Shown here: positions 28,783 to 61,401 of the stretch, piece by piece
How the letters are laid out: the number at the start of each line of letters is the position of its first letter
Numbering within the stretch: position 1 is the stretch's first letter
Assembly (NCBI GenBank): GCA_051251855.1
Contig: JBPOGI010000001.1
Coordinates: forward strand, 1,280,001 to 1,344,000
From: Roseibacillus sp.
GTDB lineage: Bacteria; Verrucomicrobiota; Verrucomicrobiia; Verrucomicrobiales; Akkermansiaceae
Reading direction: 5' to 3'
DNA length: 64,000 nt
Program-made: the position numbers and the translations under genes
Notes under the pieces: generated by a model
Databases searched by the model: none
The model's input: only the letters and a program-made list of their open reading frames with translations
What the model was told of the DNA's origin: nothing

Positions 28783-29040
28783 TTGAGTTTGAAGGAACTG
28801 AAACACCTCCAGCAAGCGCCAAACCTATCAACATCTTTCCCTTTGAAGTGAGATGGTGAAGGCCGGGACAACAGGCTTGGGAATCGGACCGTCATTGCTC
28901 CTAAGCTCAGACTAAACAACCTAGCTAAGCTGCTTCCTTCGAAAACTCTTTTGACAAAAAGCGTCTTAATTTCGGTGCTAAATTTGCAATCTCACCATGA
29001 AGAAAGACAAACTAACCCCTCAATCTATCGGTTAAAAAGA

Positions 29041-29087
29041 GAGGCGGCGGTCGGATTTGAACCGACGAATACAGGTTTTGCAAACCT
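29041..29087 (-). tRNA. 3' fragment of tRNA-Cys(GCA) serving as the island attachment site; not a complete tRNA
   Basis: Minus strand AGGT-TTGCAAA-ACCT anticodon arm, GTCGGTTCAAATCCGAC T-arm and CGCCGCC acceptor strand; no D-arm or 5' acceptor strand upstream; ~100 bp from the integrase. Confidence 0.85.
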
Positions 29088-43700: not shown

Positions 43701-43990
43701 TCATCGAAGTCCCCTTCACTCACACCACTCCTGACGGGCAACAAGCAACCGGCTTCATAGACCATCTCGTAATCACCCCGGATGGTCCGATCATCATCGA
43801 CCACAAGATCTATCCCGGCCCCAAGTCGACCTGGGACGAGACCGCCCTTTCATACTCTGGACAGCTAGCCCTCTACCGCCAGTTCGTCTCCACGATCTTC
43901 CCCGGGCAAAAAGAACCCGAATGCTGGATCCACTTCGCAAGCCACGGAGCCTCTCTCAAGGTCGAGATCCCCTCGACGAGCTTATCATAG
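40721..43990 (+). CDS. AddA-like UvrD/SF1 helicase with C-terminal PD-(D/E)XK nuclease
   Basis: ASAGSGKT, VDEFQDT, VGDVKQAIYGFRG, HGAKGLEW, YVGFTRAR, GFIDHL, IIDHK, QLALY; 4-bp overlap with partner. Confidence 0.9.
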   Translation: MNPSIEFTSASAGSGKTYRLVEIVSEAILDGSARPQGIVATTFTVAAANELRERLSAKFYETDRHTDAVLLRSGMIGTVHGICLDLLSRFSLEAGLSPEVTILDDNQSKELLSRAFDAILTGDDEQQLYQLSKRLSQVDPQSSTHNFHSVIPSIVNNARSNDIDPTDLPKTGKDSWEEMKAALPAPSKDDLDKELADAIKCALKELDPNAKANVVQTYRQLLQQCLRALDNEGLDWSHWNKLTTASPGKAQANLAIALPVQEAASRLGEHPRFHEDQKSYLSLLFKKAQHLAESFGQLKRERGVADFADLEKEALDLLTNSEEVRSILSAEIDLLVVDEFQDTSPIQLALFSRLAECAKRVVWVGDVKQAIYGFRGSDPELIISAVAGATKTPPLDLSWRSAPDLVHFVNGFFAKPFEESLGLPPEEVTLTPHRETHAEASPALRIAKVTSGEQTAKGLPKKTKNEHRIAATADAIQVFLDSDEKVIDKNSITPQDPVGSLRPVTPRDLAILVRTGKNASDLADDLRARGIDVSLSTSGLLTTPECQLALACLRVLVDSRDSLASAEVIALEASHAPESWLSDRFEYLKQRAENPPGESSKAWGRKGTVSSPSIDALLTIRDEHNLATLSPLALYDLAHTAADVPSLASAWGPTQQRAEQRFANLSRLRELVQEYQTAAHSSAAPATLNGLFVWLDDLADDFGSKEAKDKRPIDPEIDSVHIGTYHGAKGLEWPVVFACDLDSKTRSRLFTLRQLSESAKLDFADPLAGRTLRLWINPFGKSKSQLVDDLEASPVGQQSEQNAQSEELRLLYVGFTRARDTLVLVNDPATTPEWLDLTSAGDFLKAENSPFTLGEHSLPLTTSTQIYEPFVSLPPPAPTIQLPVRAPSQTSRLPLHITPSSREPIAGAIVTETIEFGTALQVPSRINARDYGDAMHRIIAAEIQNPNHPDRNLRAERLLTHWDLQESISTDEILTTVDTYRKWIEDTFNPTQQLIEVPFTHTTPDGQQATGFIDHLVITPDGPIIIDHKIYPGPKSTWDETALSYSGQLALYRQFVSTIFPGQKEPECWIHFASHGASLKVEIPSTSLS

Positions 43991-44398: not shown

Positions 44399-46075
44399 AT
44401 GGCGACGATGTTCCCTGCATACTTCCCCGACCTCAATCATGTCGACAATCCAGAATTTCAGGTCTACCAACTGCTAAGAGAACTTCCTGATAGCTTCTCT
44501 GTAATCCATTCGAAGAAGCTCAAGGGAGGCTTAAACTGTAAAGAGGAGACTGAAATTGACTTTCTCATCTTTGACGGGGGAAAAAACCTCATTTGCTTAG
44601 AGGTGAAAGGTGGCGAGATCGCCTACAATGGCTCTGAGTCTCGCTGGCATCAGAACGGGAAACCAATGAAACGTTCGCCCGACAGGCAGGCCTCCGCAGC
44701 TTGTCACGCCATTATCGAATTCCTTGGAAAAGACGCAGGCAACATCAACATAAATTGGGCACTTGCATTTCCTGATTGTAGTCGGCCTGCCGGATCGGGC
44801 CGTATACTAGAGGTCCCTGACGACCTCATCCTTGACTCAACGGCCCTTCTCAAACCGGTTGACGCCGTTCAGCGGGTTTGTCGATATAATGAGACTCATC
44901 ACGGTCGACCGGGGGTAAAACGATATCAGGCTTCGAACATTCTTGAACGCCTACTTCGTTCCGTTGGGTTTGTCACCAAAATCGGAGTCAACCTGATCCG
45001 AGACCAATCTCAACTCGTCAAGGCCACCGAGCAGCAGCTCGAGATCCTTGAGGATCTCGAATTGAACGAGAGAACCGCCGTCATGGGCTATGCGGGGACG
45101 GGCAAAACAATCATTGCAACCGAATTTGCGAAGCGGATGTCGAATTCAGGTAAACGGGTATTGCTGCTCTTCTACAATCGCATGGTGGCAAACTCAGTCC
45201 GCTACGGACTCGGTCGAGAATCCCCTATCGACTGCGCTACCTTCCATAGCCTCGCACGAAGAGAAATCGAGGCCAGCGAGAAGAGCTGGTGGAAAGCCAA
45301 CGTAAAGAAAGACGATCCCGAGTTCTGGGAAACCGAAGTTCCGCTCAAAATGCTCGAGGTGCTCGAGTCGAAAACGCCAGCCTACGACACAATCATTGTA
45401 GATGAGGGGCAGGACTTTAAGGCCGAATGGTTCGAGACGCTTGAAAGGCTTCTCGTTCGAAATGACAGCAGCCGTTGCGTTGTTTTCTATGATGACAATC
45501 AAGACATTTTTGGCCGATGGAACAATCTCCCCTGGGAGCCAAACACTTACACCCGCAAACGACTGAAGAAAAACTGCCGAAACACCAAGGCGATTATTGA
45601 TTACCTCAATTTGGTCATACCCTCCGAGATGATAGGATTCGCAAACTCTCCGGCTGGCCAACCTGTCCTCCTCAAAGAGCCCCCCAATCAGAATGAGGAG
45701 AGTAAACTGATCAAAAATGATATCGCCTTATTTCTGAAAGAAGGTGTAGAGCCCGGAAAGATCGTGATTCTCATCAATGACTCACTTGCTGAAAGCGCTG
45801 TCTCCTCGATCCAAAAAATTGGGCGTCACGCAGTCGAATGGATGGGTAGGACATACCGCCGCGACTCATCTGTAATCCAAGTTACTAATATTGAAAACTT
45901 TAAGGGACTGGAAGCTGACGTCCTACTTATTTCAGGGCTAACACCACAGGATGCAAAAACCGCGCCGGAAAAGCTCTATACTCAGGCGTCAAGAGCCCGC
46001 TTATATTTATCCATTTATTGCTCAGCCTCTGACAAGCCAGAATCCCGCACCCACATCAACAATCGACAACTGTAA
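44399..46075 (+). CDS. NERD nuclease fused to SF1 helicase
   Basis: EIDFLI..LEVKGG (NERD), GYAGTGKT, VDEGQD, FKGLEAD, YTQASRA. Confidence 0.88.
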   Translation: MATMFPAYFPDLNHVDNPEFQVYQLLRELPDSFSVIHSKKLKGGLNCKEETEIDFLIFDGGKNLICLEVKGGEIAYNGSESRWHQNGKPMKRSPDRQASAACHAIIEFLGKDAGNININWALAFPDCSRPAGSGRILEVPDDLILDSTALLKPVDAVQRVCRYNETHHGRPGVKRYQASNILERLLRSVGFVTKIGVNLIRDQSQLVKATEQQLEILEDLELNERTAVMGYAGTGKTIIATEFAKRMSNSGKRVLLLFYNRMVANSVRYGLGRESPIDCATFHSLARREIEASEKSWWKANVKKDDPEFWETEVPLKMLEVLESKTPAYDTIIVDEGQDFKAEWFETLERLLVRNDSSRCVVFYDDNQDIFGRWNNLPWEPNTYTRKRLKKNCRNTKAIIDYLNLVIPSEMIGFANSPAGQPVLLKEPPNQNEESKLIKNDIALFLKEGVEPGKIVILINDSLAESAVSSIQKIGRHAVEWMGRTYRRDSSVIQVTNIENFKGLEADVLLISGLTPQDAKTAPEKLYTQASRARLYLSIYCSASDKPESRTHINNRQL

Positions 46076-46218: not shown

Positions 46219-47175
46219 TCATTCCTCGTAGAGCGATGACCTGATCACTTGACTCTTAGCGCCCGGAACTGACCAAGAAACATCATCGAAGCAATAAGCT
46301 AACCACGGATAAAGGCGGGCTATAGCATCCTTAATTTCAAACCGATAAGGCAGCGGGACATCTTGCGCATTTTCATGAACAAATGCAGTAACTGCTCCGA
46401 AGTTCATTGATGGCCTACTTCGTATTTTCTCCACAATACGCTTCACAAAAAGTTGACTCTGGAAAGCCTGCATCGAGATCTCTTCAAAGTCTTCTTTTAG
46501 CAGATCACTCTCAGAGAGCTTGAGGCTTCCGATATCATGCAACATTTGAGGGCACATTTCATGGCCCTTAAGATAACTGGAAACGGCATCAAAGAAGGCT
46601 CGGGGACTCTCCGAAGCGGGCAGATCAGAAACCCTGAATTCCTTCTCCTCCATTGGGGGAAGAACGAGATTTCCGATAAACTGTGGGTCAACTTGAGATT
46701 CGTCGATCGCCCTCTGGTATGCCTCCACTACTTCTTTAGTTACTCTCCTGCTCTCATCGCAAAGACGACGGATATGACCGTAAGAATTGAAATCTAATGG
46801 ACTTAAAACCCCCATCTCCTCGTTGTAGGAATCACTCAATGAGAGCCCTTTATCCGTAATATTCGAACTCCCTGAATAGGCGAGACCTGATGAAAATTCA
46901 AAGAGCTTGAGATGAATCTTCGAATGTTGATACAACGGAATTTTTCTCTCCTTTAAGACGTCAAAAATCCCCAGATCAGAAGCACCTGCAAGAAGGTCCT
47001 CAACTTTCCACCTCACAACTAAGCGAGCGCTTTTAACAGGAAAAGTATCAAGAAACTCCTCTAGCGCACCACTCCTGATGAAGGGAGAAAAGGCAAGAAC
47101 CAGGGACTCATCTGCTGAAATATTAACTTTAAGATTTTTTAAGATCGGAGGCCAAATTGAGGGAAAACTGGACAT
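46219..47175 (-). CDS. Phospholipase D-like (HKD-type) putative nuclease
   Basis: FSPFI, IHLKLFEF, YSGSSNIT, NEE: single HxK motif with GSxN; the canonical Asp position is Ser. Confidence 0.75.
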   Translation of the reverse strand: MSSFPSIWPPILKNLKVNISADESLVLAFSPFIRSGALEEFLDTFPVKSARLVVRWKVEDLLAGASDLGIFDVLKERKIPLYQHSKIHLKLFEFSSGLAYSGSSNITDKGLSLSDSYNEEMGVLSPLDFNSYGHIRRLCDESRRVTKEVVEAYQRAIDESQVDPQFIGNLVLPPMEEKEFRVSDLPASESPRAFFDAVSSYLKGHEMCPQMLHDIGSLKLSESDLLKEDFEEISMQAFQSQLFVKRIVEKIRSRPSMNFGAVTAFVHENAQDVPLPYRFEIKDAIARLYPWLAYCFDDVSWSVPGAKSQVIRSSLYEE

Positions 47176-47181
47176 ACGCCC

Positions 47182-48999
47182 TTACTTAAGACTCCCTTGA
47201 TACGCTTCGATCATATCGCTAACGCCTTTGCCCCACTTCATCCGCAAACTTTCATAATGTTTACGATCATCGTCGGTTATCCCCAAAGTGTCTTCGAGAC
47301 GAGCCCATGAGGCGAAGATTAATTTCAAACAATCAAATCCTATTCCCTCCTTCTCTTCAAGCTCTTCAATAAAAGCAGAATAAGCAGGATGCAACTTATT
47401 GATAGTAACTTTTAGTTTTCCAGCTGGGGTAGACACGTCGAAAATCACATCGCTCGCTCTGATGGGAGCTGAATTAAAAATATACTTCTCCCCTGCTAAC
47501 CACTCATTGAGTATAACCTCTTTATCTTCTTCAGCCGTATCTGAATCGTCCATTTCAAGCTCATCAGTAAGCTCCCTCTTTTTCTGAGCATCGGAAAGCT
47601 CAGCTGCTTTTTTATCGCTTACCCCTTCCTCGCCATCATGTTTAGCGGTCTTTGACGCTGCTGAAGCCGCTCGATCAGTTTCCTTGACTTTCTTTGCTTT
47701 CTTAACTCCGACAGTCTGTGACTTAATCGAGTTACGAATCCCACTTAAGAGTCTACGAATCTCATCGCAAATTTGGATAATGGGAAGCCTGGGATCGTCT
47801 TCAGACTCCATTTCCATTTCAAGTTGGGCAGCCTCAACGTCCTCGTCTTGTGCAATTTCACCTAAGCTGAGATTAGAAAATGCAGTGGCAGACTGCTTGT
47901 TGTTTGTCACACCAAAAACTTCGTCTAGGCCAGGCTCAAAGGCTACTTCGATACCCCACCATCGCTCAGTAGGATTATATGAATTTTCGAAGGATCTATT
48001 TAACTCTAGCTCTCGACCAGCTCTCAGAATTGAGACACCCTGATTCTTAGCAGCATGCTTTCCAAGAGGAGTTGATCCTGCAGGTAGATTAAGAGCATCG
48101 CAAGCCCGTCTAAAATCCTCTCTAGCTTCTGAAGCTTTAATTACCACCTCATGTTCTTGTCCACCCCAATTTATTTTTAAGGTTTTCGAGTCTCCGTATT
48201 GGACAAATTGAGCCTGCTTTTTATATCTGAAAGTCTCGTCTCCAACCTCGATTGACTCAGGAGCCTGCGTTCCCGTCATGAGATAAAGAGGGTCGTTAGG
48301 CTTACAGAAAGATTCGGTAAACGTCTCGTCTCCACCACTTTCAAGATATGCTGCGAGCCTAATCGTACAGGTCCCATCGTTAAGAAAGTAACGATACATT
48401 CTCCCCACAATAGCTGCAGTGTTAGCAAAAAAGGCCCGGCTTCGCCCCCACTTCATTCGATCAAGACGACTCCAAACTACCAATGTTCCGTGTTCCTCAA
48501 GCTTAGACTTTATTCGGCTTTTCCACTTTTCGGGAATTCCATCTACCTTTTCGGGAACTGGAACTTCATCCTTACCATCAATAATTTCATTTATATCTAG
48601 GTGAGAATGATGAACAGCGCCATCTCGCCAAGACCACACGTCAACCCTCTGACATTGAGAGACCGAGGAGTTGGGAAGCCCCATGCCAAACTTGCCCATG
48701 CCGATCTCAGCATCTAAATTAGTTCCTTGGGCAAACGCGAGAGACAGTTCCAAAGTTTCAGCGTCCATTCCACATCCATTATCGTAAACAGCAATCTCTT
48801 TTATTTTTTTGGAAGACCTGCGAGTTATGATAGTTTCTTCTTCAAGACAAATCAGCTCTACATCGATATTTTTTTCAGTTTTAAGTCCAGCCTGAATGCT
48901 GTTATCGATTATTTCGGCTATAGCATGAGCGGCATCTTTGTAGCCACTGTCACGCATCGCCTTTACGGTTAGCCCAGAAGTGAAATATTTTTTTGGCAT
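47182..48999 (-). CDS. GHKL (MORC/HATPase_c_3-type) ATPase
   Basis: AIAEIIDNSIQA, DNGCGM, GMGKFGMGL, GTLV; C-terminal INKLHPAY. Confidence 0.88.
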   Translation of the reverse strand: MPKKYFTSGLTVKAMRDSGYKDAAHAIAEIIDNSIQAGLKTEKNIDVELICLEEETIITRRSSKKIKEIAVYDNGCGMDAETLELSLAFAQGTNLDAEIGMGKFGMGLPNSSVSQCQRVDVWSWRDGAVHHSHLDINEIIDGKDEVPVPEKVDGIPEKWKSRIKSKLEEHGTLVVWSRLDRMKWGRSRAFFANTAAIVGRMYRYFLNDGTCTIRLAAYLESGGDETFTESFCKPNDPLYLMTGTQAPESIEVGDETFRYKKQAQFVQYGDSKTLKINWGGQEHEVVIKASEAREDFRRACDALNLPAGSTPLGKHAAKNQGVSILRAGRELELNRSFENSYNPTERWWGIEVAFEPGLDEVFGVTNNKQSATAFSNLSLGEIAQDEDVEAAQLEMEMESEDDPRLPIIQICDEIRRLLSGIRNSIKSQTVGVKKAKKVKETDRAASAASKTAKHDGEEGVSDKKAAELSDAQKKRELTDELEMDDSDTAEEDKEVILNEWLAGEKYIFNSAPIRASDVIFDVSTPAGKLKVTINKLHPAYSAFIEELEEKEGIGFDCLKLIFASWARLEDTLGITDDDRKHYESLRMKWGKGVSDMIEAYQGSLK

Positions 49000-49011
49000 T
49001 ATGTGTATGTG

Positions 49012-50631
49012 TTAAAAATGAGAATTCCAGTGATTGAAACTTTCCGCAATACTGGTGAATGCAGGAAGATCACTATCGATAACAGTATGGACTTCACAGC
49101 TTTTCGTCCCATTCACCTTCGGACCACGTGTTGCTCTTCCAACCATCTGACTGTAAAGAGACAAGGAAGTAGTAGGACGAGTAATGATCACGGCTTGAGT
49201 CTGAGGAGCATCGAAACCGGTTGTAAGCACGCCGTAGTTAATCAAAATTTCGATTTCTCCAGATTTATATTCGGCAATGCGAGATGACCTCACCGCTCCT
49301 GGCGTCTTCCCGGTAACTAGTCCAACCTTCACCCCTTTATAAATTAAAAGAGCCGTCAGAGCCTCCGCGTGGGCAACCGAACACGCAAAGAGAATGGTTG
49401 GTAGCCCTCTTGCTATAACATCCAAAGTTCTCAAGATAATTTCGAAGTTTCGCTTAGTATCTTCCCCAAGCCGCTCCAGCATTTTAGGAGTAAAATCCTC
49501 TCCAATATCTAGCCGTTCTAGCTCGGATGAAGAAAAAAATAAATCAGATTTAGCCAACTTGAGGGGCCTGTATTCGACAAAAGACAAGTAACCTTCGGCT
49601 TGAAGAAATTGGATAGGTGAATCGAAGCCTTTAACCTCGAGCATTACCTTATTTTTATTGAAATATTGAGCAAATTTTGCATTTTCTTCTTCGTTCTCAG
49701 TAGATCTTCCCGGGGTAGCGGAAAGACCCAATAGGGATGCACTAAAAGCAGTGAGGTGTGTAACAACTGAATCGTAGGTAGGAGCCAAGATGCGATGCGC
49801 CTCATCAAAAACTACTAACGATGAATAAGAAAGAATTTGGTTTCTTTGAATCTGGTCCTTGAACGCCGCGTTCAACTTTTGCAAGCTAGCTACGACAATG
49901 CCAGGCTGAAGGTCGCTTAGAGGACAGGAGTAAGCGCCGTACAAACGAGTGAGTCTCTTTGGAGCCATCCCCAGAGCAGACCAGGCTTTATCAAATTCTT
50001 CAGCTGCTTGCGAACAAAGCTCCTCCGTATCAGCCAACCAGAATACAATCTTCTCGTCTCCCGATCTAATTTCATCATTAAGATGCTGGCAAATGATGCG
50101 CATCGCTGTCCGAGTCTTACCTGACCCGGTTGGCATGTGTAAAAGCGTTCGACCACCTTTTCTCAACAGTGCAGTTACTTTCTCGGCGGCATGCATCTGA
50201 TGCTCGAAGAGAGCGTATTTTGGAGAAATCAGCTCAGATTGCTCACACAGGTCTACTGCTTCTCTTTCCTCATAAACAGGCTTTATCAAACCAAAGAACT
50301 CTAACAACTGATCCTCTAAAGAAGAATCGTAGTTTAGCGCTACAGCCGTTTCCCAAGGATCATCTCCCTTGTCCACATTTACGGCCTCAAGAAAGGCCAC
50401 TACTTCACTCTCATCAAAATGACGTAATACACATCGTCTTCCCTTTTTGTCGAGGAGGATCCCTTCTGGCGTGTAGACATCACACAAGCATTGAGCCAGT
50501 TGAAGCTTATTCGTTTCGCCGCCAGAAACGTTTATCAGTGCGATGACCGCTGGAGAGACGAAAGTTTCGAAGTCTTCCATCCCGGCACGGGACAAAACTC
50601 TCGACAACTTTAAAGGTGACATATCGCGCAT
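49012..50631 (-). CDS. SF2 DEAH-box helicase (ResIII-like)
   Basis: MPTGSGKT, FDEAH, LSATP, LTTGFDAP, QMVGRATR; overlaps the end of the PAPS reductase gene. Confidence 0.92.
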   Translation of the reverse strand: MRDMSPLKLSRVLSRAGMEDFETFVSPAVIALINVSGGETNKLQLAQCLCDVYTPEGILLDKKGRRCVLRHFDESEVVAFLEAVNVDKGDDPWETAVALNYDSSLEDQLLEFFGLIKPVYEEREAVDLCEQSELISPKYALFEHQMHAAEKVTALLRKGGRTLLHMPTGSGKTRTAMRIICQHLNDEIRSGDEKIVFWLADTEELCSQAAEEFDKAWSALGMAPKRLTRLYGAYSCPLSDLQPGIVVASLQKLNAAFKDQIQRNQILSYSSLVVFDEAHRILAPTYDSVVTHLTAFSASLLGLSATPGRSTENEEENAKFAQYFNKNKVMLEVKGFDSPIQFLQAEGYLSFVEYRPLKLAKSDLFFSSSELERLDIGEDFTPKMLERLGEDTKRNFEIILRTLDVIARGLPTILFACSVAHAEALTALLIYKGVKVGLVTGKTPGAVRSSRIAEYKSGEIEILINYGVLTTGFDAPQTQAVIITRPTTSLSLYSQMVGRATRGPKVNGTKSCEVHTVIDSDLPAFTSIAESFNHWNSHF

Positions 50632-51428
50632 CCGTTCGTTTCGTCCACTGGTTGGATTGACTTCTTTTTCCCGGCAACAACTTGGTCTAAGGTTTTTCCG
50701 TCCACCCAGGTAAATTGCCTATCTCCGATCTTTTTTTCGTATTCCTTGGCCTTCTCAAATAAATCTGGGTGATGTTTTTTCAGATTTTGCCATTCTCCAA
50801 TCTGTTGATAAAAGCAAAAATAGCATCCTGAACGCGACCTCCAATCATAGTAGGATGGCCATCCCAAGCCCGTTTCTTCAAGGATGTCTCTTACTCCATC
50901 GATTCCAATCTCAGCATCTCTAAATGGGTAAACCGCCTGGATTGTGGGCTTCTGCGAAAACACAGGGGGCTTTTTCCCCTTGTAGCCCTCACGGTCTTCA
51001 TCGCCTCTAATCCCGATATAGGAAATCGCGGTTGAGCCTTCTAGATGTTTCTCGAGAGGCTTAATTTTTAAGGTTCCGGTGCACCACCGTGAACGAGCAC
51101 TCGGAAGGTAATTTGACCAAATCTCAGTCAGAAAAATATCGAAAGGATTACGGTCCTTTTCTTCGATATTCAGGTAATTGAAAGCATTGATTCTCTCGAT
51201 CTTTTTTCCGAGAAGACGCTCTAATTTCTCAAGGAAATCGTAGGTCTCAGGGAGTTCGCACTTGGTGTCACAAAAGACATACTCTGCAGGAATCTGAGGA
51301 AAGTTGAGTTTGAGATACAATGCAAGTGCGGCGGAATCCTTACCACCACTTATGTTGACGATGTGTCTTCTTTCAGAATCTTCCGTAATCGCCGCTAAGG
51401 CTTCTTCCATGGATATCATTGTACTCAT
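50610..51428 (-). CDS. PAPS reductase-family protein, SspD/DndC-like
   Basis: ISGGKDS PP-loop, RWCT, GIRGDE, RSGCYFCFYQ, terminal CAICHL. Confidence 0.88.
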   Translation of the reverse strand: MSTMISMEEALAAITEDSERRHIVNISGGKDSAALALYLKLNFPQIPAEYVFCDTKCELPETYDFLEKLERLLGKKIERINAFNYLNIEEKDRNPFDIFLTEIWSNYLPSARSRWCTGTLKIKPLEKHLEGSTAISYIGIRGDEDREGYKGKKPPVFSQKPTIQAVYPFRDAEIGIDGVRDILEETGLGWPSYYDWRSRSGCYFCFYQQIGEWQNLKKHHPDLFEKAKEYEKKIGDRQFTWVDGKTLDQVVAGKKKSIQPVDETNGCAICHL

Positions 51429-54400
51429 CAGCGGCGTTTTCCTTTCTCTTTGGTAGCTTTTCCAAGCGATTCTAGAAAATCTGCAGCCAACTCTTCTCCC
51501 CCGACATCTTTAAGTTTTTGCAAAGCTTCCTCAATCCGAGACTGAATCAAATTAATCATACCTTTCGACTCGGTCTTGCTCGGTTTTAGGGATGATACGT
51601 CCTTACCGAAGGCGAAGTCCTCTACACTGCGAATACTTTCGGATAGTGTCGTACTAAAGTTATCGACGTCCCCGTCACCCCAGCGAGAAACCGAAGAGGA
51701 TGAGAGTTTTGGTAGGTCGGAAAGTGAGTCGATGAGTTGAGCATCACCTTCATAGTCGAATTGCATTCGCATAAGGATAACGTAGTCGGGATGGCTCTTT
51801 GAAATAAACTTGCTAAAGCTCTTCGCCCAGTCGTGAGCAGCCTCGCGCGTTGTTCTTTTGTCTGAATCTGGCACCTGAAGCGCTCGCCGAAGGAACTTGG
51901 CTGCGGTCTCGCGGTATTTGACGGTCACCGATTCAATTTCGGTTTTTGCCTCCGCTACAGACTTTTGCAGCTGCGGCCCGGACTCATCCTCAAAGATTTG
52001 TGGGATTCTAGTTAAAAGCAGAAACACAGGATCGTTACTGCGAAGAAGAGCATTTCTTAGGTCTTTTGCCGGTTTGGAAAGCTGTCGCGACTCCCTAACA
52101 GCCTCCGGCAGCTGGCGAAGCCAAGCCTGCAGAGCCTCAAAAGTTTTCCTTATTAAATCGGACTCATCACCCAGATGTTTTTGTTGGCAGAACAAATGAC
52201 GTAGCTCTTCAAGGTAGCTCACAGTGTCAGAGTCCAAGGCGAGGACTTTGACTCTGAACCTCTCCGGCTGCTTGCAGATTGTTTCAATCACTGACGGCAG
52301 AACGTCTGCGATATATTCCCCGTCTTTGAGGAGGCTCGTTGAGACAGCGAATGCCTTAAGACCTGCAGCAAAAAGAATGGGAAGAACTCCTGCCCTAACT
52401 CCAAAGGGTGGTGCCTGTAAGGTATCAAACAATTCTTGGGGCGAGCGCCCTTCCGGACAAGGGTCACGAAAGAAGTCTTCAATCAATGCCCAAACTTTAG
52501 ACAATCCAGGATCTTCAATGGCTGAAGGCTTAGTAAATCCCCATCCGTCGCTGAAAGGTGCATAAAGCCCTGTGTTGAGCAGAACCGTTCTAAAGATTGC
52601 GGCGTCAGGAAAATTCCCGGTAATTCCAAGCCCTTCTTTCCCCGTTCTCTCTAAAAGTGCTAACAGAGCTTTCTTCCGAGAATTAATCATCACAGGGGTC
52701 GGCTTCTTCTTAACGATCAGCTCATTCTGAATAACAGGGGTATCAGGATAGCTTTTGCCAGTAATCGCAGACAAAAAGATTTCGAGCTGACGGACAGATT
52801 CAATTTCAAAATCTTGCCCGCAATAGACCCAATCGGTTCCACTGGCGGAAGGTACAACAAGCTTATCCACCAATTTTGTTAGGTGGAGCCGAGCATCATC
52901 AAGCATTTGCTTAATCTCGGGAAGGACAAGTGGATCTGATTCAATGAGACCCGAGTCTCTTTCCATGCTCGAAAGAGCCGCAACCTCGGTGGCAGCATCG
53001 CGGATTTGAAGAGGTTCTGAGGGAATAGCAAAGACAATCCGCTTGTTTACCGAATCCTTGGTCTTGCTCGTTAGATTGATGGCCTTCCTGGCCTGTGCGA
53101 TCTCGTCAGCGGTTTCTCCAAGGAGGTAACAGACACGACCATCCACTGTCGAATCAAGCTCGAGGACCTCCGGGCGAATCACATTGAGATGATCTAGAAA
53201 ATCCTGCGCTCGAAAGTAGACACTCTCGAAATAACGTCGTACCCCGAAGGTGTCATTGTGCTCTCGCGGCCTCCAGCAAGGAGGAAGACACTCCCGTAGG
53301 AGGAATTGATTGAGATTGAAGACGGCCGACAGCCGTTGCTTCTCGTCCTCAAGCTTTGTGCGAAGATCCAAATCGGCTCCATGCCAGATAGAGACTTCAT
53401 CAGAATGCTTTCGGTGCAGTAAAAGTTTACGCGCTACCAGATTCTCAATCGTAGTTTCGGCTTCCGCTCGCGAACCATAGGAGGCACAAGCTGATACAAC
53501 CTGGTCGAAATTTACGCGGTATCTTTGTCCAGAGCTACCTAAGCTCATTAGGCAACAGGTTTTGAGAGCTTCTTCTTCAGCTGTAGTCTGAGCCTTGGAA
53601 AGAGCGCTCTCTGTTTCTAGCCACTGCCTAAACGTCCCACCCGCCTCGGAGTCGGTTCGCATCTGGTCACTAAAGAAGTCGTAGAGAACAGACGGCGTTA
53701 TCTCTTTCTCCAAGTCCAACGTGAACAAAAAGGTGAATAGGGTTCTTTCGTTCTGTGAGACACGTGCCGCAATCTTCGGCAGGAGAGCCAATGTTGAGGG
53801 ACTCAACGGCCATGCCCTTTTGAAAATCTCAGTGAGTTCTTTAATTGAAAAATTGGTCCACATCCCCTGCGCCTTTAACGTCTTAGCGGAACTCGCAATC
53901 TTAGCTTGAGAAGGGCTCTGAAGATCTGGACTACGGGACGAAACAATCTCCCCAAGGAGCCGGTAGATTTCCTTGCTGTCTTCAATGTAGTCGAGAGTTT
54001 GGAAGCGACCTTCAATCTTCTTCCACTCTCGCTTTGCCCCCGAAGGAAGCTTCTTCCCGTAGTGCATGAATCCCTGATGAAGAAACAGACTGAGAACTGT
54101 CGGTATTTTCTTCTGACGGGATACTCTTTCAGCAAGAGTCTGGAGGTCATGAAGATTTCCAGTGAGCCCCTCCGAAACGAGATACTCGAGATGACGCCCA
54201 AACTCATCCCAGTAAATGACAACTCGATCAGCTGAGGCTTTCTCTGCTGAATCTCTTAGTGCTACCATTACATCCTCAAGTGAACTCTTCTCTGATATCT
54301 CGGCAACGGGATAAGTCGCCGATTTTTTGCCCAGCCTCTTTAAAGAAGCGATAGCCGCATTAGCGATAGCGAGCGGAAGCGATTCAATCGCGCCCTCAAG

Positions 54401-54769
54401 GGCTAGGCCAAGGCCTTGCTCGCCACTTTCGATCCTTTGAATTGCAGCTTTTGAACTCGCAGCACTCACTTCACTCATTCTGCTCGCAATCTCAGAAAGA
54501 ATGGTTGCTCCCTTTCCCCGGTTCTCCACAAGTTGCAAGGCAAAGGTCGATGCTAGGCTCTTACCGGAACCGTATGGTGCGGTAACAAGAAACTCTCGTC
54601 CTTCCGTCTGACCTAGAAGCTTCTCAATGAGATCGACTGATTTTGCAGTTGGAAAAAAATGCGCAATTCTACCTGCGTCTCCTGCATCAAGAGCGACGTT
54701 TATAGACCGAAGGAAACGCTCTTGGGTTATCCGACTTTCTGGAGCTTTTTGTCTAGTTTTTGCCGCCAT
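51428..54769 (-). CDS. Large P-loop ATPase, SspC-like
   Basis: APYGSGKS, YWDEFG, EWKKIEGRF, QNERTLFTFL, PPFGVRAG; lies between DUF4007 and PAPS reductase. Start 54769 (alternative 54814). Confidence 0.8.
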   Translation of the reverse strand: MAAKTRQKAPESRITQERFLRSINVALDAGDAGRIAHFFPTAKSVDLIEKLLGQTEGREFLVTAPYGSGKSLASTFALQLVENRGKGATILSEIASRMSEVSAASSKAAIQRIESGEQGLGLALEGAIESLPLAIANAAIASLKRLGKKSATYPVAEISEKSSLEDVMVALRDSAEKASADRVVIYWDEFGRHLEYLVSEGLTGNLHDLQTLAERVSRQKKIPTVLSLFLHQGFMHYGKKLPSGAKREWKKIEGRFQTLDYIEDSKEIYRLLGEIVSSRSPDLQSPSQAKIASSAKTLKAQGMWTNFSIKELTEIFKRAWPLSPSTLALLPKIAARVSQNERTLFTFLFTLDLEKEITPSVLYDFFSDQMRTDSEAGGTFRQWLETESALSKAQTTAEEEALKTCCLMSLGSSGQRYRVNFDQVVSACASYGSRAEAETTIENLVARKLLLHRKHSDEVSIWHGADLDLRTKLEDEKQRLSAVFNLNQFLLRECLPPCWRPREHNDTFGVRRYFESVYFRAQDFLDHLNVIRPEVLELDSTVDGRVCYLLGETADEIAQARKAINLTSKTKDSVNKRIVFAIPSEPLQIRDAATEVAALSSMERDSGLIESDPLVLPEIKQMLDDARLHLTKLVDKLVVPSASGTDWVYCGQDFEIESVRQLEIFLSAITGKSYPDTPVIQNELIVKKKPTPVMINSRKKALLALLERTGKEGLGITGNFPDAAIFRTVLLNTGLYAPFSDGWGFTKPSAIEDPGLSKVWALIEDFFRDPCPEGRSPQELFDTLQAPPFGVRAGVLPILFAAGLKAFAVSTSLLKDGEYIADVLPSVIETICKQPERFRVKVLALDSDTVSYLEELRHLFCQQKHLGDESDLIRKTFEALQAWLRQLPEAVRESRQLSKPAKDLRNALLRSNDPVFLLLTRIPQIFEDESGPQLQKSVAEAKTEIESVTVKYRETAAKFLRRALQVPDSDKRTTREAAHDWAKSFSKFISKSHPDYVILMRMQFDYEGDAQLIDSLSDLPKLSSSSVSRWGDGDVDNFSTTLSESIRSVEDFAFGKDVSSLKPSKTESKGMINLIQSRIEEALQKLKDVGGEELAADFLESLGKATKEKGKRR

Positions 54770-55683
54770 GATTTTAGCTTTGATTGTTCGTTCGATAGTG
54801 ACAATTTCAGCCACTCCTCTTTTGGTGCGTTCTTGATTTCGACCATTCGGTTACCCGCCATCCCGCGAACTCTGATCCACTCTTCACCCAATTCCTGCTC
54901 TGCCTTGAGAGCATAATCGTAGAGTTCTTCTGGACGCATCAGCAGAGCGCGTCCCGGGCCCGAACGACGTGACACGGCGTCCCCAATCGAGAGGGAAACG
55001 TAATCTTTGTCGTCCTCCGAAGAATCCTTAGCCCCACTTGCCATTACGCTGTAACCCAGCATGGTAGACGGAATCGACTTCATCCCGAATTGGGGAATAT
55101 AAAAACCCGACTCTCTCGAAAAAGTAAGTAAACCAAGACGAAGAAATGGGCAGTCTTTGGTATCCTCCGGTGTCAGGTCGAGCCGAGGTATCGTCTGGGC
55201 ATAACTGGCTAGAATCACTGAAACGTCCTTCTCTAGAGTCTTTTGTGCCGGACATCTGAAGCTCGGATTGTATTCGAGACTTCGTTTTAAGCTCTCCACG
55301 CAATAGGCCTTTTCAAAACGATTCGCTTTAAAGTCGTTGAAAAACCAGTTCCAAGCGAAGGCAAAGTTGGAGTTGTTTACCAGATTCACATGCAAGGCCC
55401 ACCAAGTCGCCTCTGATTGAAAGTAAGGATCAAATTCCTGAATCACTTTCGCAAGCTCACTTCTCTCGGTGACCTTCCCGCTTTCAGCTTCGAGAATTCC
55501 ATTCGTTAGCATTGTTGCGCTTAGCCAATGCCGAATCGATTTAATCATATTGCTACCGACACCAAGGATGTCAGCGGCCTCAGGAGACAAGAGCCCTTCT
55601 TCTCCAGGAACGTCGCAGATAGAGAGCCCCTTACGAAGCCACCCGTCCCTCAAATGGAATGTTTCGTGTCCTGCAAATTTCAT
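54727..55683 (-). CDS. DUF4007-family protein, SspB-like
   Basis: FAGHETFHLRDGWLRKG, LGVGSNMIKSIRHWL, DPYF..TWWALH, CPFLRLGL. Confidence 0.88.
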   Translation of the reverse strand: MKFAGHETFHLRDGWLRKGLSICDVPGEEGLLSPEAADILGVGSNMIKSIRHWLSATMLTNGILEAESGKVTERSELAKVIQEFDPYFQSEATWWALHVNLVNNSNFAFAWNWFFNDFKANRFEKAYCVESLKRSLEYNPSFRCPAQKTLEKDVSVILASYAQTIPRLDLTPEDTKDCPFLRLGLLTFSRESGFYIPQFGMKSIPSTMLGYSVMASGAKDSSEDDKDYVSLSIGDAVSRRSGPGRALLMRPEELYDYALKAEQELGEEWIRVRGMAGNRMVEIKNAPKEEWLKLSLSNEQSKLKSWRQKLDKKLQKVG

Positions 55684-56804
55684 GATACGAGAAGTTGTGA
55701 TTGCCGAAGCAGTTGAGTGAAGCTCGAGCCAATTCTGTTCACGGCGAGATCAACTTCCTCCGGTGAGTTGTAAATTGAAAAAGAAAACCTTATACTCGAA
55801 CGCGCGACTTCCTCAGAAACCCCCATGGCAGTGAGCACATAGGAGGGTTCGGGACGTCCAGTAATGCAAGCTGACACCTGAGAACAGATCACTCCTACAA
55901 GATCGAGTTTTGCGACAAGAGCGGCACCATCGACTCCCTCGAATTGAATGTTGGTAGTATTGGGGATACGCGGGCTTGTTGCTCCATTAATTCTCAATTC
56001 GGAATGAGATGAAAGAAGCTTGGATTCAAATTTGTTCCGTAATGACTCGAGGTATGCTGCGTTATTTCGTTCCGAAGCGAGGCGCTCCTGAACCACTGCT
56101 CCAAATGCAATAATCCCAGGTGAGTTCGGAGTATGTATATTTGAAAATAGAGTCTCGAAGTCACCCTGACTGTCTCCCACTAGGATTACCCCTACTCCTT
56201 GCGGTCCATGCATTTTGTGTGCGGTGAAGGTCATGAAGTCAATTCGTCCGACAAGGTCGGGATCAATTTCAATCTTCCCTACTACCTGGGCAGCGTCGAC
56301 ATGAAGAGTCGCGCCATGAAGCTTGCAAATTTCGACAATTTCGCAGATGGGCTGAAGTACCCCGGTCTCACTGTTAGCCCACTGAATCGAAACGGCTCGA
56401 CACTCGTTCTTCTCGAGCTTGAGTTTAAATGCCCCTAAATCGATCAGCCCGTTAGATTCCACAGGGAGAGAAAAAACCTTCTTGGACCGAATGCCTGAGT
56501 AGGCTTCAACTACAGAAGAATGTTCGGTTTCAAGAAAAGCCAAAACCTCACACTCCTTTGCCATGTGCTCTATGACCTTTCGATTTGCCTCTGCCCCCCC
56601 CGAAGTAAATCCAACGGACATTTCGTTGTCGGTTCCAAGAAATCTCGCAACACGATAAGCGGTTTGATTGATTGCACTGCGTGCGGATTCACCCACTCCG
56701 TGAATATTCGAAGGATTTCCCCACAACTCTCCAAGAGCGCGGTTCATCTCTTGAACAGCAACCCTCGACGGCATTGTTGTGCTATTATTGTCTAAGTAGA
56801 TCAT
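55680..56804 (-). CDS. Cysteine desulfurase (IscS/DndA/SspA-like)
   Basis: MIYLDNNSTT, GNPS, HVDAAQ, AHKMHGPQGVG (PLP Lys), SQVSAC (catalytic Cys), SIRFS; 4-bp overlaps with both neighbours. Confidence 0.9.
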   Translation of the reverse strand: MIYLDNNSTTMPSRVAVQEMNRALGELWGNPSNIHGVGESARSAINQTAYRVARFLGTDNEMSVGFTSGGAEANRKVIEHMAKECEVLAFLETEHSSVVEAYSGIRSKKVFSLPVESNGLIDLGAFKLKLEKNECRAVSIQWANSETGVLQPICEIVEICKLHGATLHVDAAQVVGKIEIDPDLVGRIDFMTFTAHKMHGPQGVGVILVGDSQGDFETLFSNIHTPNSPGIIAFGAVVQERLASERNNAAYLESLRNKFESKLLSSHSELRINGATSPRIPNTTNIQFEGVDGAALVAKLDLVGVICSQVSACITGRPEPSYVLTAMGVSEEVARSSIRFSFSIYNSPEEVDLAVNRIGSSFTQLLRQSQLLVS

Positions 56805-57040
56805 AGGGAAGGATCTCCTCTCATCTTTGAATGTGGGGAATCAAATCCATCTTTGGATTGAAGATTTGTAGCCTGACTAGCAAACAACGACGGCTGCTTT
56901 TTATCTTCAACGTAACCGGTTGCTTTCTCAAGGAACCACGCCTTCAGATTGGTCTCATCTTCACGAAGAGCCGAATAAAGTTCATTTTTGAACTCCGGTT
57001 CTAAATCGATCACTATCCTTCCTGAATCACTCCGTGGCAC
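56801..57040 (-). CDS. Small ribbon-helix-helix-like protein, putative regulator
   Basis: GRIVIDLEPEFKNELYSALREDETNLKAWF strand-helix-helix pattern; GTG 57040 preferred over ATG 57058. Confidence 0.65.
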   Translation of the reverse strand: MPRSDSGRIVIDLEPEFKNELYSALREDETNLKAWFLEKATGYVEDKKQPSLFASQATNLQSKDGFDSPHSKMRGDPSL

Positions 57041-57041
57041 C

Positions 57042-57065
57042 CATGTAACATGGCTCATGTAACAT
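57042..57065. promoter_or_regulatory. Tandem palindromic operator candidate
   Basis: CATGTAACAT at 57042 and 57056 (14-bp period); core ATGT-A-ACAT is an interrupted palindrome directly upstream of the GTG start. Confidence 0.6.
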
Positions 57066-57093: not shown

Positions 57094-59115
57094 CTAGAGC
57101 TTTTTCAACCCGTAGCTGTAACCCATTTGTTTTAAAGCCTTTGTTAATTGCTCCTTTGTCGGACCGAACCTGCCGACTTGCTCTTCGTTGAGACCCAAAC
57201 GCGCGAGTCTACGTGAAAATGTCTCGGCCTTCGCTCGCAGTGGAGAATCTTTCGCGACCAGGCGTTCTTTAAAGTAAAGAAGCTGTGTTTTGTCGCTCTC
57301 GGCGTCAAAAACCCTGATAAAAAGGCGACGAAGGTCGATTTTGATCCGAGTCTTCATTTCAGGCAGGTTGAATCGCTCAAAACCCTTGTAGGTTTGGAGA
57401 GTCAACTTTCCCGATGTCGTGTGAATTTTAAACACATCGATATCGCTGAGATCTCCATAAAGCATCCCTCCACATCCCACATAAACTCGCAGCAAGGCGG
57501 GCAATTTATCGAGTAGAGAGTGATGAAAAAGGAAGTGTCCTTCATCATCATCATAATAGCCGAAATTCAAGTTTTCGACAGCAATCTCCAGCTCCATAGG
57601 ATCGCCTGCTGAAAAAAGGAGGTCTCTTGCTTGGTCACAGGCCTCCGAATAGCTCGGGAAGAAGGCCTTGATATCCCGTCTCAACCCCGGAGAAAGTTTA
57701 GCAATCGGAGTTCTTCTCTTTTTGAACTCCTCCTCGGCTAAATAAACCAAAAGATCTTCGACTCTTCTCGCTCGGCGTTCCTCGATGACTTCGAAACCAT
57801 ATTTGTCCTCGAATAATGCAGCCGCACGAGGAATGGATTTGCAAACTTTGCGAACTTCGTCAGTCCGCTCATACTCATCGCGGTGGGGTAGACGCGCCAA
57901 CTCGAGGTAGCTTTTCCAGAAATCATCGAGAAGCTCTTTATTCTTCTCGTAGGTCGAAAGACGCGGTTTGCGCTCTTTTGGACTAGGAGCACCAAACCCC
58001 AAGCGGGTTGCTAAGGCATCCCAATCTATCACACGACGACTACGTTTTGCCAGATAATCTTGCTGGTCTTCATTATTGCGAAAAACAAAAAAGACACCGG
58101 GAGCGGCAGCCACTGCATCTTTATGCAAGGCTGTTTCAATAAACGCTTGAAGCTCGGCCTGCTCGAAATACTTCTGGAACGTATTCGAGTTGGTTATCAC
58201 TCCGTCACCGTAAGACTTCGCATTGGCGTAGGAGTCTCCGCCCCTCACCATCGCAGAGACAACAAGAAGTCGTTCAGTGAAATCCCATGCCTTAAAAAGA
58301 GTTTCTACCCTTTCAGCAGGATCTTCGATTACGTTGATAACGTAGCCTAAATTCACGAAGTCTGCCTTCCTAAGCTCTCCTTCCGGACGATGAACTGGAT
58401 CCCAGGCAGCAACGTTATGACCAAGATTCTCTAGCCCTTTCACATCGGCGCCATGTCCGCACCCGTAGTCAAGGACAGTGGATTTGTTTTGTAAAAACTC
58501 GGACTGCAGAAGCATTTTAATCGGCTTCGAAAAGTCATAGCGAATCATCGCAGTTTTGTGCCTGTCTACCTCAATATCCGGCGACGCCTTCTCACCCTTC
58601 TTCTCTGTATGAAGAAGCTCATGGCCTACAACAGACAAGCCTTTGGATAAAAGAAGCTCTTCCCAGTTTTTTCGAAAGCCAATTATTCGGGGATTCTCGT
58701 AAAGTCCTGCTTCTTCCTCTGCCCGTGTTAGCTGACGAAATTTCGCTGCGTCTGGATGACCTTGAATTAGAAACTCTTCCTTACGGTGAAGAAGGGGAGG
58801 ATTGCCACGTTGATCGAAACTAGCGGTCTTAGCTTTACCTGTGGCTAGGTCGACAAGAATCGACTTCAGGAGAACAGGATGAGCGATATCGAAAAACTCA
58901 GGATACGCTAAAAGACTGACCTTGAACTGGGCCTTGTGAAGCTTGAGAACATTAAACTCATCCTCCACTGAGAGCATTTGTACAACCTTGGTGACTAGAT
59001 CTTTCAGCTCTTCACCTAGTTCCTCGATACCCTCACGGTGAACGTAGACCGCATCAGGCAATTTCTTCCCAAACCCCAGGTTTCCTAAAACCTTTTTATA
59101 TTCGAGGAACGTCAT
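57094..59115 (-). CDS. DNA phosphorothioation-associated putative methyltransferase (TIGR04096-like)
   Basis: GKKLPDAVYVH, NPPLLHRKE, RHKTA, LDYGCGHG (SAM motif), VNLGYVINVIEDPAER, TFQKYFEQAEL. Confidence 0.88.
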   Translation of the reverse strand: MTFLEYKKVLGNLGFGKKLPDAVYVHREGIEELGEELKDLVTKVVQMLSVEDEFNVLKLHKAQFKVSLLAYPEFFDIAHPVLLKSILVDLATGKAKTASFDQRGNPPLLHRKEEFLIQGHPDAAKFRQLTRAEEEAGLYENPRIIGFRKNWEELLLSKGLSVVGHELLHTEKKGEKASPDIEVDRHKTAMIRYDFSKPIKMLLQSEFLQNKSTVLDYGCGHGADVKGLENLGHNVAAWDPVHRPEGELRKADFVNLGYVINVIEDPAERVETLFKAWDFTERLLVVSAMVRGGDSYANAKSYGDGVITNSNTFQKYFEQAELQAFIETALHKDAVAAAPGVFFVFRNNEDQQDYLAKRSRRVIDWDALATRLGFGAPSPKERKPRLSTYEKNKELLDDFWKSYLELARLPHRDEYERTDEVRKVCKSIPRAAALFEDKYGFEVIEERRARRVEDLLVYLAEEEFKKRRTPIAKLSPGLRRDIKAFFPSYSEACDQARDLLFSAGDPMELEIAVENLNFGYYDDDEGHFLFHHSLLDKLPALLRVYVGCGGMLYGDLSDIDVFKIHTTSGKLTLQTYKGFERFNLPEMKTRIKIDLRRLFIRVFDAESDKTQLLYFKERLVAKDSPLRAKAETFSRRLARLGLNEEQVGRFGPTKEQLTKALKQMGYSYGLKKL

Positions 59116-59150: not shown

Positions 59151-59513
59151 GGAGGAAAGCCCCAACGCCCTGACAGAAAATAAAATATGACTGATAGCGA
59201 GAACCCTGAGACTATTCCAAGCCGCACTTCTTCAAGTGCCCCCCCTTTTGATGCCCGACGCTCTAACGGTGAAGCCGAGCTCCTCAGCCTGTCTGAACAG
59301 CCTCTGCTACCGCCGAACGAAGAGGCCTATTCACCAGATCCCGCTGCTCTTGAGTGGCGGTCGCAGCAACTACTGACTGGATAAAGGTGCCGCTGCACCC
59401 TCCTCTTGCTCTCGCTCATTTGACAGACGTATTATAATCTGTCCTCACAGTAAAAGTAGAGCCCCAAAAAACAAAAGTTACAGGATGAGGTTAAACTGTC
59501 TTTTCATTTTATC

Positions 59514-60933: not shown

Positions 60934-61372
60934 TCCACCTGAGCCTTCCGCGACCCCCAGCGATTCCTCCCCAGGAAATGATTTCGAGGCCTCTTTCCAA
61001 AAGGAAGTCAATGTCCCCCAGCTGGAGTTCGACACCCTAGAGCTCGACTACATGCTGACTCACACCTCCGGCCCTCAAATTTTCCGCGCCATCGTTCACT
61101 ACTACTATCAGCGCGAACTCACCCAGAACGGGACCCAAGAGCTCCCTCTCATTCGAGCCGGAGCCGTTCTCACCCCCGCCGACTACCCCCTCCAGTCCAA
61201 CCATACAAAACCCATTCACCACCTGGGTCATCAGCGCTTCTTCGATCTCGACCTCCTCCCCGAGCCCCTCGATGCCGGCGAGAACACTATCGAATGGATC
61301 AAAATCAACCGCGACCATACCGACCTCCTCGATCGCGATGAACTCGACCTCAGCGACATCTTTTCCACATAA
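60914..61372 (+). CDS. Hypothetical acidic protein
   Basis: Host-like codon usage, operon-like spacing; start uncertain. Confidence 0.55.
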   Translation: MNSNTSDPPEPSATPSDSSPGNDFEASFQKEVNVPQLEFDTLELDYMLTHTSGPQIFRAIVHYYYQRELTQNGTQELPLIRAGAVLTPADYPLQSNHTKPIHHLGHQRFFDLDLLPEPLDAGENTIEWIKINRDHTDLLDRDELDLSDIFST

Positions 61373-61401
61373 CTCACAACTCACAACTCACAACTCACAA
61401 C
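61371..61401 (+). repeat. Heptamer tandem repeat (AACTCAC)x4 plus AAC
   Basis: Fills the interval between stop 61372 and start 61402. Confidence 0.9.

Follow-up and report, generated by a model that had tools for sequence, protein, structure and literature searches.

A helicase, GHKL ATPase and HKD nuclease trio linked to SspABCD phosphorothioation genes in Roseibacillus: a candidate phosphorothioate-guided effector

We analysed a 64,000-nt stretch of DNA from Roseibacillus sp. (assembly GCA_051251855.1, contig JBPOGI010000001.1, positions 1,280,001 to 1,344,000 of the forward strand; hereafter the window), which carries an operon joining the genes of an Ssp DNA phosphorothioation (PT) system to a trio of genes for a helicase, an ATPase and a nuclease. 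Members of the SspABCD family place single-strand phosphorothioate marks on the host genome, at CpsCA in the strains studied. Eight open reading frames (ORFs) were confirmed, all on the minus strand, from position 57058 down to 46219. An earlier interpretation made from the letters alone (the sequence-only reading) had described eight co-oriented genes with gaps of at most 12 bp; this holds, but the overlap of sspB with sspC is long, the junctions being, in order, overlaps of 4, 4, 43-88, 1 and 22 bp and then gaps of 12 and 6 bp. Behind a small putative regulator lies the cysteine desulfurase SspA (55680-56804; PADLOC SspA 4e-84, tied with DndA at 4e-83), which retains the pyridoxal-phosphate lysine motif TAHKMHGP and the Cys in VSAC. 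It is followed by the DUF4007 protein SspB (54727-55683; PADLOC SspB 5e-84, Pfam PF13182 207 bits), in which 26/26 strongly conserved columns of the family alignment are retained, and by the ATPase SspC (51428-54814, or from the ATG at 54769; PADLOC SspC 1e-159 versus BrxC 1e-74), with Walker A GSGKS, Walker B DEFG and 47 of the 50 strongly conserved columns. The PAPS-reductase-type sulfurtransferase SspD (50610-51428; PADLOC SspD 4e-88) has its SGGKDS and cysteine motifs and all 64 strongly conserved columns. The identification of the writer as SspABCD, already proposed in the sequence-only reading, is thus borne out by the PADLOC E-values of all four genes; the defining set of the system, an operon of sspB, sspC and sspD together with sspA or iscS, is present, and the window holds a predicted intact sspABCD writer gene set.

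The first gene of the trio (49012-50631, minus strand) encodes a superfamily 2 (SF2) helicase/translocase, recognised by its ResIII, DEAD and Helicase_C Pfam matches. All SF2 motifs are intact (GSGKT/DEAH/SAT/QMVGRATRG), the helical N-terminal domain of ~125 aa belongs to no known family, and among solved structures the protein is closest to RadD (8e-46) and to the SauUSI helicase (1e-24). The second gene (47182-48999, minus strand) encodes a GHKL+S5 ATPase of MORC/SMCHD1/MutL-like type (HATPase_c_3 in Pfam), whose residues E29, N33 and D73, G-box and transducer lysine K368 are invariant in 119 homologues. Its structure model has a predicted local distance difference test score (pLDDT) of 92.7, and a fold search with residues 1-432 returned SMCHD1 (Z 20.6, root-mean-square deviation (rmsd) 4.5, 339 residues aligned), MORC3 (Z 19.0) and MutL (Z 18.7). 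The protein has the combined GHKL and S5 module that characterises the MORC family, with intact motifs for ATP binding. The MORC motif of the S5 domain, GhXhhpXXRhl, is matched by GVSILRAGREL except for an E, found family-wide, at the hydrophobic position after R. The earlier label of MORC was therefore close rather than exact, since SMCHD1, MORC3 and MutL are near-tied by fold and one motif position is off; we regard the protein as putatively MORC-like or paraMORC. Its C-terminal domain (~110 aa) gave no significant Pfam or PDB-sequence match. An Hsp90-type dimerisation domain at this end, suggested by an NxxHP resemblance, was unsupported by sequence searches.

The third gene (46219-47175, minus strand) encodes a single-HKD nuclease of the BfiI/Nuc type with a C-terminal helix-turn-helix (HTH) and winged-helix region. 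The PLD/HKD catalytic set (H88-x-K90, S103, N105, N118 and E120) is invariant in 36/36 sequences and the structure model has a pLDDT of 92.3. The fold of the N-domain is closest to SauUSI (Z 11.7, rmsd 2.4, 140 residues aligned), BfiI (11.5), Nuc (9.6) and NgoAVII R (9.0). Against Pfam PLDc_2 the window protein scores 16.5, below the cut-off of 27, which the homologues in loci L108, L109 and L027 pass. The C-domain weakly resembles N.BspD6I (Z 7.1), BrxA (6.3) and FokI (5.8) over ~130 residues, which we take as a lead only; a winged-helix module in FokI, SspB and DndG was proposed to serve in target/modification recognition (Rakesh 2024, PMC10853773; here and below, statements drawn from papers cited by PMC accession refer to their accessible text). 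In PADLOC, the three proteins gave generic matches only: the helicase to PbeA (1e-25), the GHKL ATPase to MzaB (1e-16, over ~170 N-terminal residues) and the PLD protein to DrmC (4e-4). Six trio homologues from L010, L048 and L133 likewise gave only generic PADLOC or NCBIfam matches. At E <=1e-30, the profile of the nuclease matches 1,507 clusters (50% identity). Atlas searches returned unnamed clusters only, a scan of genome contigs with one protein returned one weak unrelated locus, and the phage collection contained no full-length homologue. No longer fused ATPases appeared in the search, which is weak evidence, and P0254 was rejected as an ATPase-nuclease fusion. A complex prediction for the ATPase and the nuclease scored 0.01 and carries no weight either way.

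The relation of the trio to ssp genes was examined at 80 metagenome matches, the best among at least 514, together with 21 viral-collection loci, 8 plasmid regions and the regions of 8 genomes. Counts refer to loci with an ATPase score of at least 250 bits (98 loci, 32 of them flanked by at least 6 kb on either side). L001-L003 and ATPase matches below 250 bits were left out of them, and plasmid H14 was dropped as well, as it has 24.6% identity and is missing from the SspC rows listed. The neighbourhood co-occurrence that had been proposed as a check proved strong, the trio pairing with ssp genes far beyond chance: sspB, C or D is present in 28/32 well-flanked loci and in 26/29 clusters at 90% identity, counted with profiles into which these sequences had also gone. 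Four loci depart from this: L020 and L105, in which the trio is followed by sspFGH (in L105 sspC lies 13 kb away), and L089 and L090, which carry a shorter sister ATPase with neither helicase nor nuclease. This sister family (520-540 aa), found in L089 and L090 from the viral collection and in genome G837, comes without helicase, nuclease or ssp genes. Of the complete trios flanked by at least 6 kb on either side, 0/30 lay away from ssp genes.

Three further samples describe the same linkage. In PLSDB, sspC lies within 13.3 kb in 13/14 records with at least 80% ATPase coverage, and SspC matches occur in only 68/72,556 records. Among 400 genomes of another class (G669 unscored), DUF4007 is present in 7 and a full-length ATPase in 2 (G606 and G818), both beside sspB; the other 5 DUF4007 genomes have SspE (2), SspFGH (1) or a neighbour of BREX-4-like kind (1), or break off at a contig end (1), and G837 has a partial ATPase match and no DUF4007. 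Among 401 genomes of the window's phylum, 18 have DUF4007 and 2 have the ATPase, namely the window's own genome and G149, where the ATPase match is partial and the whole operon has the same gene order as in the window. The trio thus almost implies the writer, while most writers come without the trio. Named hosts belong to Alphaproteobacteria, Cyanobacteria, Bacteroidota and Spirochaetota.

The arrangement is also regular. The order helicase-ATPase-nuclease is kept in 68/69 loci, and in all 54 loci that have the three genes and ssp genes the trio lies within 3.5 kb of an ssp gene (within 150 bp in 25/54). In these 54 loci the trio shares an operon with the ssp genes and lies downstream of them (21), or it is convergent (28), upstream (3) or divergent (2); in L052 the ATPase gene stands between sspC and sspD. 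The earlier description of the trio as present "instead of SspE" is true at the window locus but is not a rule, as SspE occurs beside the trio in L021 and L053.

At 18 loci, designated subtype B, the third gene encodes a ~360-aa protein with a PD-(D/E)XK motif. Residues 1-96 match the PADLOC 'Effector/Endonuclease' profile PDLC00735 (6e-15), and from this one profile and a motif we presume the protein to be Cap4-like; it has no Pfam, NCBIfam or PDB-sequence match, and its C-terminal half is beta-rich. The subtype B helicase is degenerate (Walker A GKL, DEAH changed to DA[E/S], motifs III and VI lost), whereas the ATPase motifs are intact. GKT accompanies the PLD nuclease in 50/50 readable loci and GKL the new nuclease in 15/15. 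Moreover, SspF, G or H is encoded beside 13/18 subtype B loci versus 0/54 PLD loci; L106, with a fused sspF/sspH remnant beside subtype B, is a fourteenth such locus, and for 3 of the 4 subtype B loci without sspFGH the sequence available upstream is shorter than 1 kb. In the tree, which includes five subtype B loci, these make up a single clade (100/100) that lies within the PLD loci, and subtype B therefore represents one event, not 18 independent ones. Subtype B loci include L006, L007, L008, L009, L011, L014, L018, L020, L028, L029, L038, L039, L105 and L106. In L106 (positions 22820-25738; Aminobacter sp. MSH1 pUSP2), one ORF holds SspF and SspH fragments in frame with SspA; it is predicted to be the scar of a deleted sspFGH, annotated merely as a cysteine desulfurase.

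Other variants concern the ATPase's C-terminal domain. A free copy of it is encoded by a gene between ATPase and nuclease in 6 loci and by a seventh gene after the nuclease on the opposite strand, and one of these genes has a weak HTH match. The free-copy proteins have varied N-terminal domains (L021:11793-12701, L023:9596-10312, L033:11804-12685, L062:11144-12058, L080:8709-9308, L081:11766-12296, L082:5901-6593 and P0232). In P0232 the copy is fused to the nuclease, a single case that is possibly a frameshift.

The two modules are inherited separately. Across 34 subtype A (PLD) loci, tree distances correlate at 0.89 between ATPase and helicase and at 0.70 between SspC and SspD, and at only 0.12-0.32 between modules; five near-duplicate loci had been dropped from the trees. 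The window itself is a mosaic: its ATPase groups with L122, L005, L016 and L047 (95/99), its SspD with L010, L084, L021 and L133 (100). Approximately unbiased (AU) tests reject forcing either group onto the other protein (p-AU 2e-7 and 1e-43), for groups that were picked after viewing quick trees of both proteins and that include L133, a long branch. Since the trio and writer trees conflict, the modules must have been reshuffled while still remaining paired. Such repeated re-pairing with unrelated writers would argue for selection on the link, and for coupling via the DNA mark rather than via a protein interface. A single case extends this beyond Ssp: locus L073 has a full-length ATPase homologue (36% identity) inside a Dnd locus. 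There, a cluster at 1220-15905 consists in order of a TIGR04095/PbeA-like SF2 gene, a DndD-like ABC ATPase, the GHKL ATPase and a PT-binding HNH nuclease, and faces dndBCD plus TIGR04096. Its occurrence there links the family with PT and not with the Ssp proteins.

We judge it quite probable that the trio has some PT-coupled role in defence. The particular form that we favour, at about even chances of being right, is a mobile PT-guided module by which writer-marked DNA would be spared and unmarked DNA cut by an ATP-driven helicase-clamp-nuclease machine. SspABCD would mark the host DNA, and the trio, as a separate restriction module, would tell self from foreign by this mark. The winged-helix region of the nuclease or the N-domain of the helicase may bind DNA, the SF2 motor would translocate with ATP, the dimeric GHKL ATPase could form a clamp or checkpoint gated by ATP, in the way that MutL serves MutH, and a nuclease dimer would cut only when no PT mark is met. 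This proposal is backed by the gene identities, the intact catalytic residues, the kept gene order, the one-way linkage and the independent inheritance. In particular, a trio that stays paired and yet is reshuffled with writers favours coupling through the DNA mark. SauUSI is among the nearest solved relatives of both nuclease and helicase, and the third slot accepts a second nuclease fold, both of which also speak for it.

Several points weigh against this proposal. SauUSI cuts modified, not unmodified, DNA, and the nearest solved relative of the helicase, RadD, is a repair enzyme. The match of the putative reader domain reaches only Z 5.8-7.6, within the stated chance range of the tool. The trio is found in a minority of ssp loci (1/17 DUF4007 genomes of the phylum with the window's own excluded, 2/7 in the other class and ~13/68 plasmids), and of at least 514 metagenome matches only the best 80 were inspected. 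Finally, linkage alone cannot separate an effector that is toxic without the mark from one that is inactive without it.

The foremost alternative, which we consider unlikely, is that the trio is PT-activated: host PT marks would switch on its ATPase or nuclease, which would then damage phage DNA as it enters or replicates, and the trio would be inert, not toxic, without the mark. The same one-way linkage would follow, and marks that are single-stranded and partial would hinder strict protection by the mark. SspE works in this way with the same writer (PMC8092258). However, profile and fold searches recognised no sulfur-binding domain in the trio proteins, and by its fold the nuclease falls among the restriction nucleases of the BfiI/NgoAVII/SauUSI group. 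The kinship with the repair enzymes MutL (Z 18.7) and RadD (8e-46) could instead point to PT housekeeping, in which the trio processes or repairs SspB nicks or oxidised PT sites, or helps the writer, comparable to Vsr with Dcm; the ATPase gene between sspC and sspD in L052 and the homologue in a Dnd locus would fit. We find this doubtful, given that most writers do without the trio, that sspBCD with IscS modifies E. coli DNA in its absence (PMC8092258) and that the dead helicase and CBASS-effector-like nuclease of subtype B fit defence better than repair.

Subtype B invites a further explanation, that of an abortive or guard module which would monitor PT status or the Ssp machinery and, once a phage disturbs it, kill the cell or bring it to arrest. 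Its nuclease domain matches the effector profile PDLC00735, its helicase is retained despite the lost Walker B and motifs III and VI, and it stands beside sspFGH in 13/18 loci. A guard is most likely for this subtype and, taken overall, very unlikely: the window copy is subtype A, with motor motifs of apparently active type, and trio and writer show no co-evolution, which one would expect of a guard bound to writer proteins. It is highly improbable that the trio is a defence cassette of its own whose only tie to ssp genes is clustering in defence islands, for although the island of the window also has McrBC-like, NERD-helicase and AddAB-like genes and the trees of the two modules conflict, well-flanked complete trios away from ssp genes number 0/30, 25/54 lie within 150 bp of an ssp gene, and the neighbouring NERD-helicase has no such linkage.

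Going back to the PT-guided module, we tentatively extend it, in a form that we think rather more apt to fail than to hold. The trio would be a further family of PT-coupled Ssp effectors, and possibly the first case of a bacterial MORC-like ATPase gating a nuclease by a backbone mark as opposed to a methylated base. It would plug into any PT writer (Ssp, and once Dnd) through the DNA, and would be modular, with copies of the C-terminal domain adding DNA-binding domains or being fused to the nuclease. In one lineage, a dead helicase scaffold and a CBASS-like nuclease would have been joined to SspFGH as an accessory, with the FtsK motor of SspFGH standing in for the one that was lost.

The operon extends further upstream than the eight genes. 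A ninth member, absent from the sequence-only reading, is co-oriented and lies 35 bp upstream of the regulator gene (57094-59115, minus strand; 673 aa). It belongs to TIGR04096, 'DNA phosphorothioation-associated putative methyltransferase' (NCBIfam 559 bits versus a cut-off of 150), with the S-adenosylmethionine motif LDYGCGHG at 215. Among trio loci with ssp genes, 16/61 have TIGR04096, as does the Dnd locus L073; the methyltransferase is a repeated neighbour of Ssp, SspE, SspFGH and Dnd loci, and in the literature we found it in one paper only, in passing. In metagenome runs X5 and X6, related cassettes stop a short way upstream of the gene, at 59158-59159. The regulator itself (56801-57058, minus strand) is labelled ribbon-helix-helix from its sequence pattern, and family profile scans (PADLOC, NCBIfam, Pfam) gave no match for it; GTG 57040 is its probable start, as it better fits the starts of the homologues, which directly precede sspB in L016, L032 and L122. 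Promoter and terminator scans gave chance-level results only. Metagenome runs carrying the operon come from seawater and macroalgae. Run X7, in which the writer was covered and the trio was not, had a depth of ~2 and no bridging contig, and was not used.

The operon sits in an integrative island of ~47 kb in tRNA-Cys. The left attachment site is a partial tRNA-Cys copy (29039-29086), and a 21-bp exact repeat occurs at 29066 and at 76036, with no third copy in the genome; the intact tRNA-Cys(GCA), found with ARAGORN, lies outside the window at extended coordinates 76011-76085. A tyrosine integrase gene follows the left site (29186-30367). The operon has a GC content of 0.44-0.50 versus 0.537 for the genome, and a full-length ATPase homologue was present in 0/60 sampled relatives. 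Convergent with the operon is a NERD nuclease-superfamily 1 helicase gene (44399-46075, plus strand; PADLOC RTasNERD-Hel 4e-59), near which no reverse transcriptase was seen. In run X5 it is part of the same cassette as the ssp operon, with a loose end at 44399; a homologue is found in no other fetched locus, so we regard it as a passenger. The island also holds a PolA-like gene (32612-34354), an AddAB/UvrD-PD-(D/E)XK pair (38079-43990) and several unknown genes. A McrB-like AAA+ protein (62037-63788) is followed by a 433-aa ORF from 63800, probably McrC-like, and the two probably form a second restriction module. About 30 bp at 61371-61401 reach a depth of ~6,000 in run X1 and are therefore a multi-copy repeat of the source genome.

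In the main text of the accessible literature we found no description of the trio with Ssp; the accessible text of PMC3506569, PMC3632139 and PMC13712998 adds nothing further on the trio. A gap for such partners has been reported: ~84% of 2,678 sspBCD clusters have neither SspE nor SspFGH, and unknown partners were suggested (Wang 2021, PMC8092258). The accessible part of a 2025 review names only DndFGH/SspFGH, SspE and PbeABCD as PT restriction branches (PMC12707154). In Yuan 2026 the neighbourhoods of sspD are described as 'less complicated', with BREX as the only system named, and neither MORC nor GHKL occurs in the accessible main text of two Rakesh papers (one being PMC10853773). MORC-SF2-HKD operons with methylases were predicted in 2008 (PMC2292703). 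The trio fills part of the gap, accounting for 6-29% of ssp loci in three small samples, a share of the same order as the 7% reported per named partner in a different data set (PMC8092258). It offers a compact, clonable way to probe prokaryotic MORC-like ATPases, and its two natural subtypes provide a built-in comparison of motor-dependent with motor-dead effectors. To our knowledge, the prokaryotic MORC-like ATPases predicted in 2008 have not been tested with a PT mark.

Compared with profiles of SspFGH, SspE, Pbe and BREX, the first three of which the sequence-only reading had also named for a check, the trio matches none as a member, and the statement in that reading that no SspE, PglZ or BrxL was recognised is confirmed by PADLOC, which gave no such matches among the locus proteins. 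Two outcomes that would have counted against the sequence-only reading, a match of the trio to an already described module and a lack of pairing with ssp genes elsewhere, were thus not observed. BREX type 4 has parts homologous to the writer (BrxC, BrxP, DUF4007 and desulfurase) but needs PglZ and BrxL (PMC12914056, PMC12839542); neither matched any of 13 region proteins in PADLOC, and SspC scores 531 bits with its own profile versus 249 with BrxC. In L124-L125 (G749), a BREX type 4-like cluster that includes BrxL comes directly after an sspBCD cluster. Likeness to Mza (MzaB with Z1, DUF4420 and AIPR partners) ends at 63 bits for MzaB versus a cut-off of 850, with no partner matches, and likeness to DISARM (DrmA, DrmB/DUF1998, methylase, DrmC) at a 17-bit DrmC match, with no DrmA or DrmB among the listed matches. 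SauUSI, BfiI and NgoAVII are the nearest solved folds of the nuclease, and SauUSI of the helicase too, but their C-terminal reader domains differ from that of the trio nuclease, and they are not known to have a GHKL partner or a link to PT. The prokaryotic MORC/paraMORC operons (Iyer 2008, PMC2292703) likewise combine a GHKL+S5 ATPase, an SF2 helicase and a nuclease, sometimes HKD, with a proposed restriction-modification role. Modification there, however, is by a DNA methylase, and HKD domain and helicase form one fused protein; the accessible text contains no occurrence of PAPS, desulfurase or phosphorothio- (PMC2292703).

SspE shares the writer, and the trio often occupies the slot next to sspD, but SspE is a single DUF262/DUF1524 protein of ~770 aa (PMC8092258), not a three-gene unit. 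Genome-wide (95% completeness), two of 10 SspE profiles gave 22-32 bits only, on contig C6, compared with 568-881 bits for true SspE in other loci; an unlinked 642-aa DUF262-type frame there (G000:C6:58248-59819; SspE similarity 31.6 bits) is probably GmrSD-like. As for SspF, the genome-wide search gave no match, with no positive control matched either, and SspH matched the C-terminus of housekeeping FtsK only; SspG was not searched genome-wide. The trio itself matched no SspFGH profile, compared with 726-2427 bits for true SspFGH in L105. PbeABCD resembles the trio in placing an HKD nuclease and an SF2 helicase next to a PT writer; there, PbeA is an HKD-SF2 fusion accompanied by a CxC ABC ATPase and a DndE cognate, beside Dnd (Rakesh 2024, PMC10853773). 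The trio differs in its separate nuclease and helicase genes, its GHKL ATPase and its Ssp writer, and the helicase matches only the motor region of PbeA (88 bits), with no ABC ATPase. The closest parallel is SspABCD-SspFGH, with the same writer, a three-gene partner with ATPase motors and a patchy, reshuffled pairing with sspBCD. SspF, G and H are, however, a P-loop protein, an unknown protein and an ~1,800-aa FtsK-like protein (PMC8092258), unlike the trio, and subtype B occurs in addition to them. The trio, a member of neither system, would work like SspFGH or Pbe.

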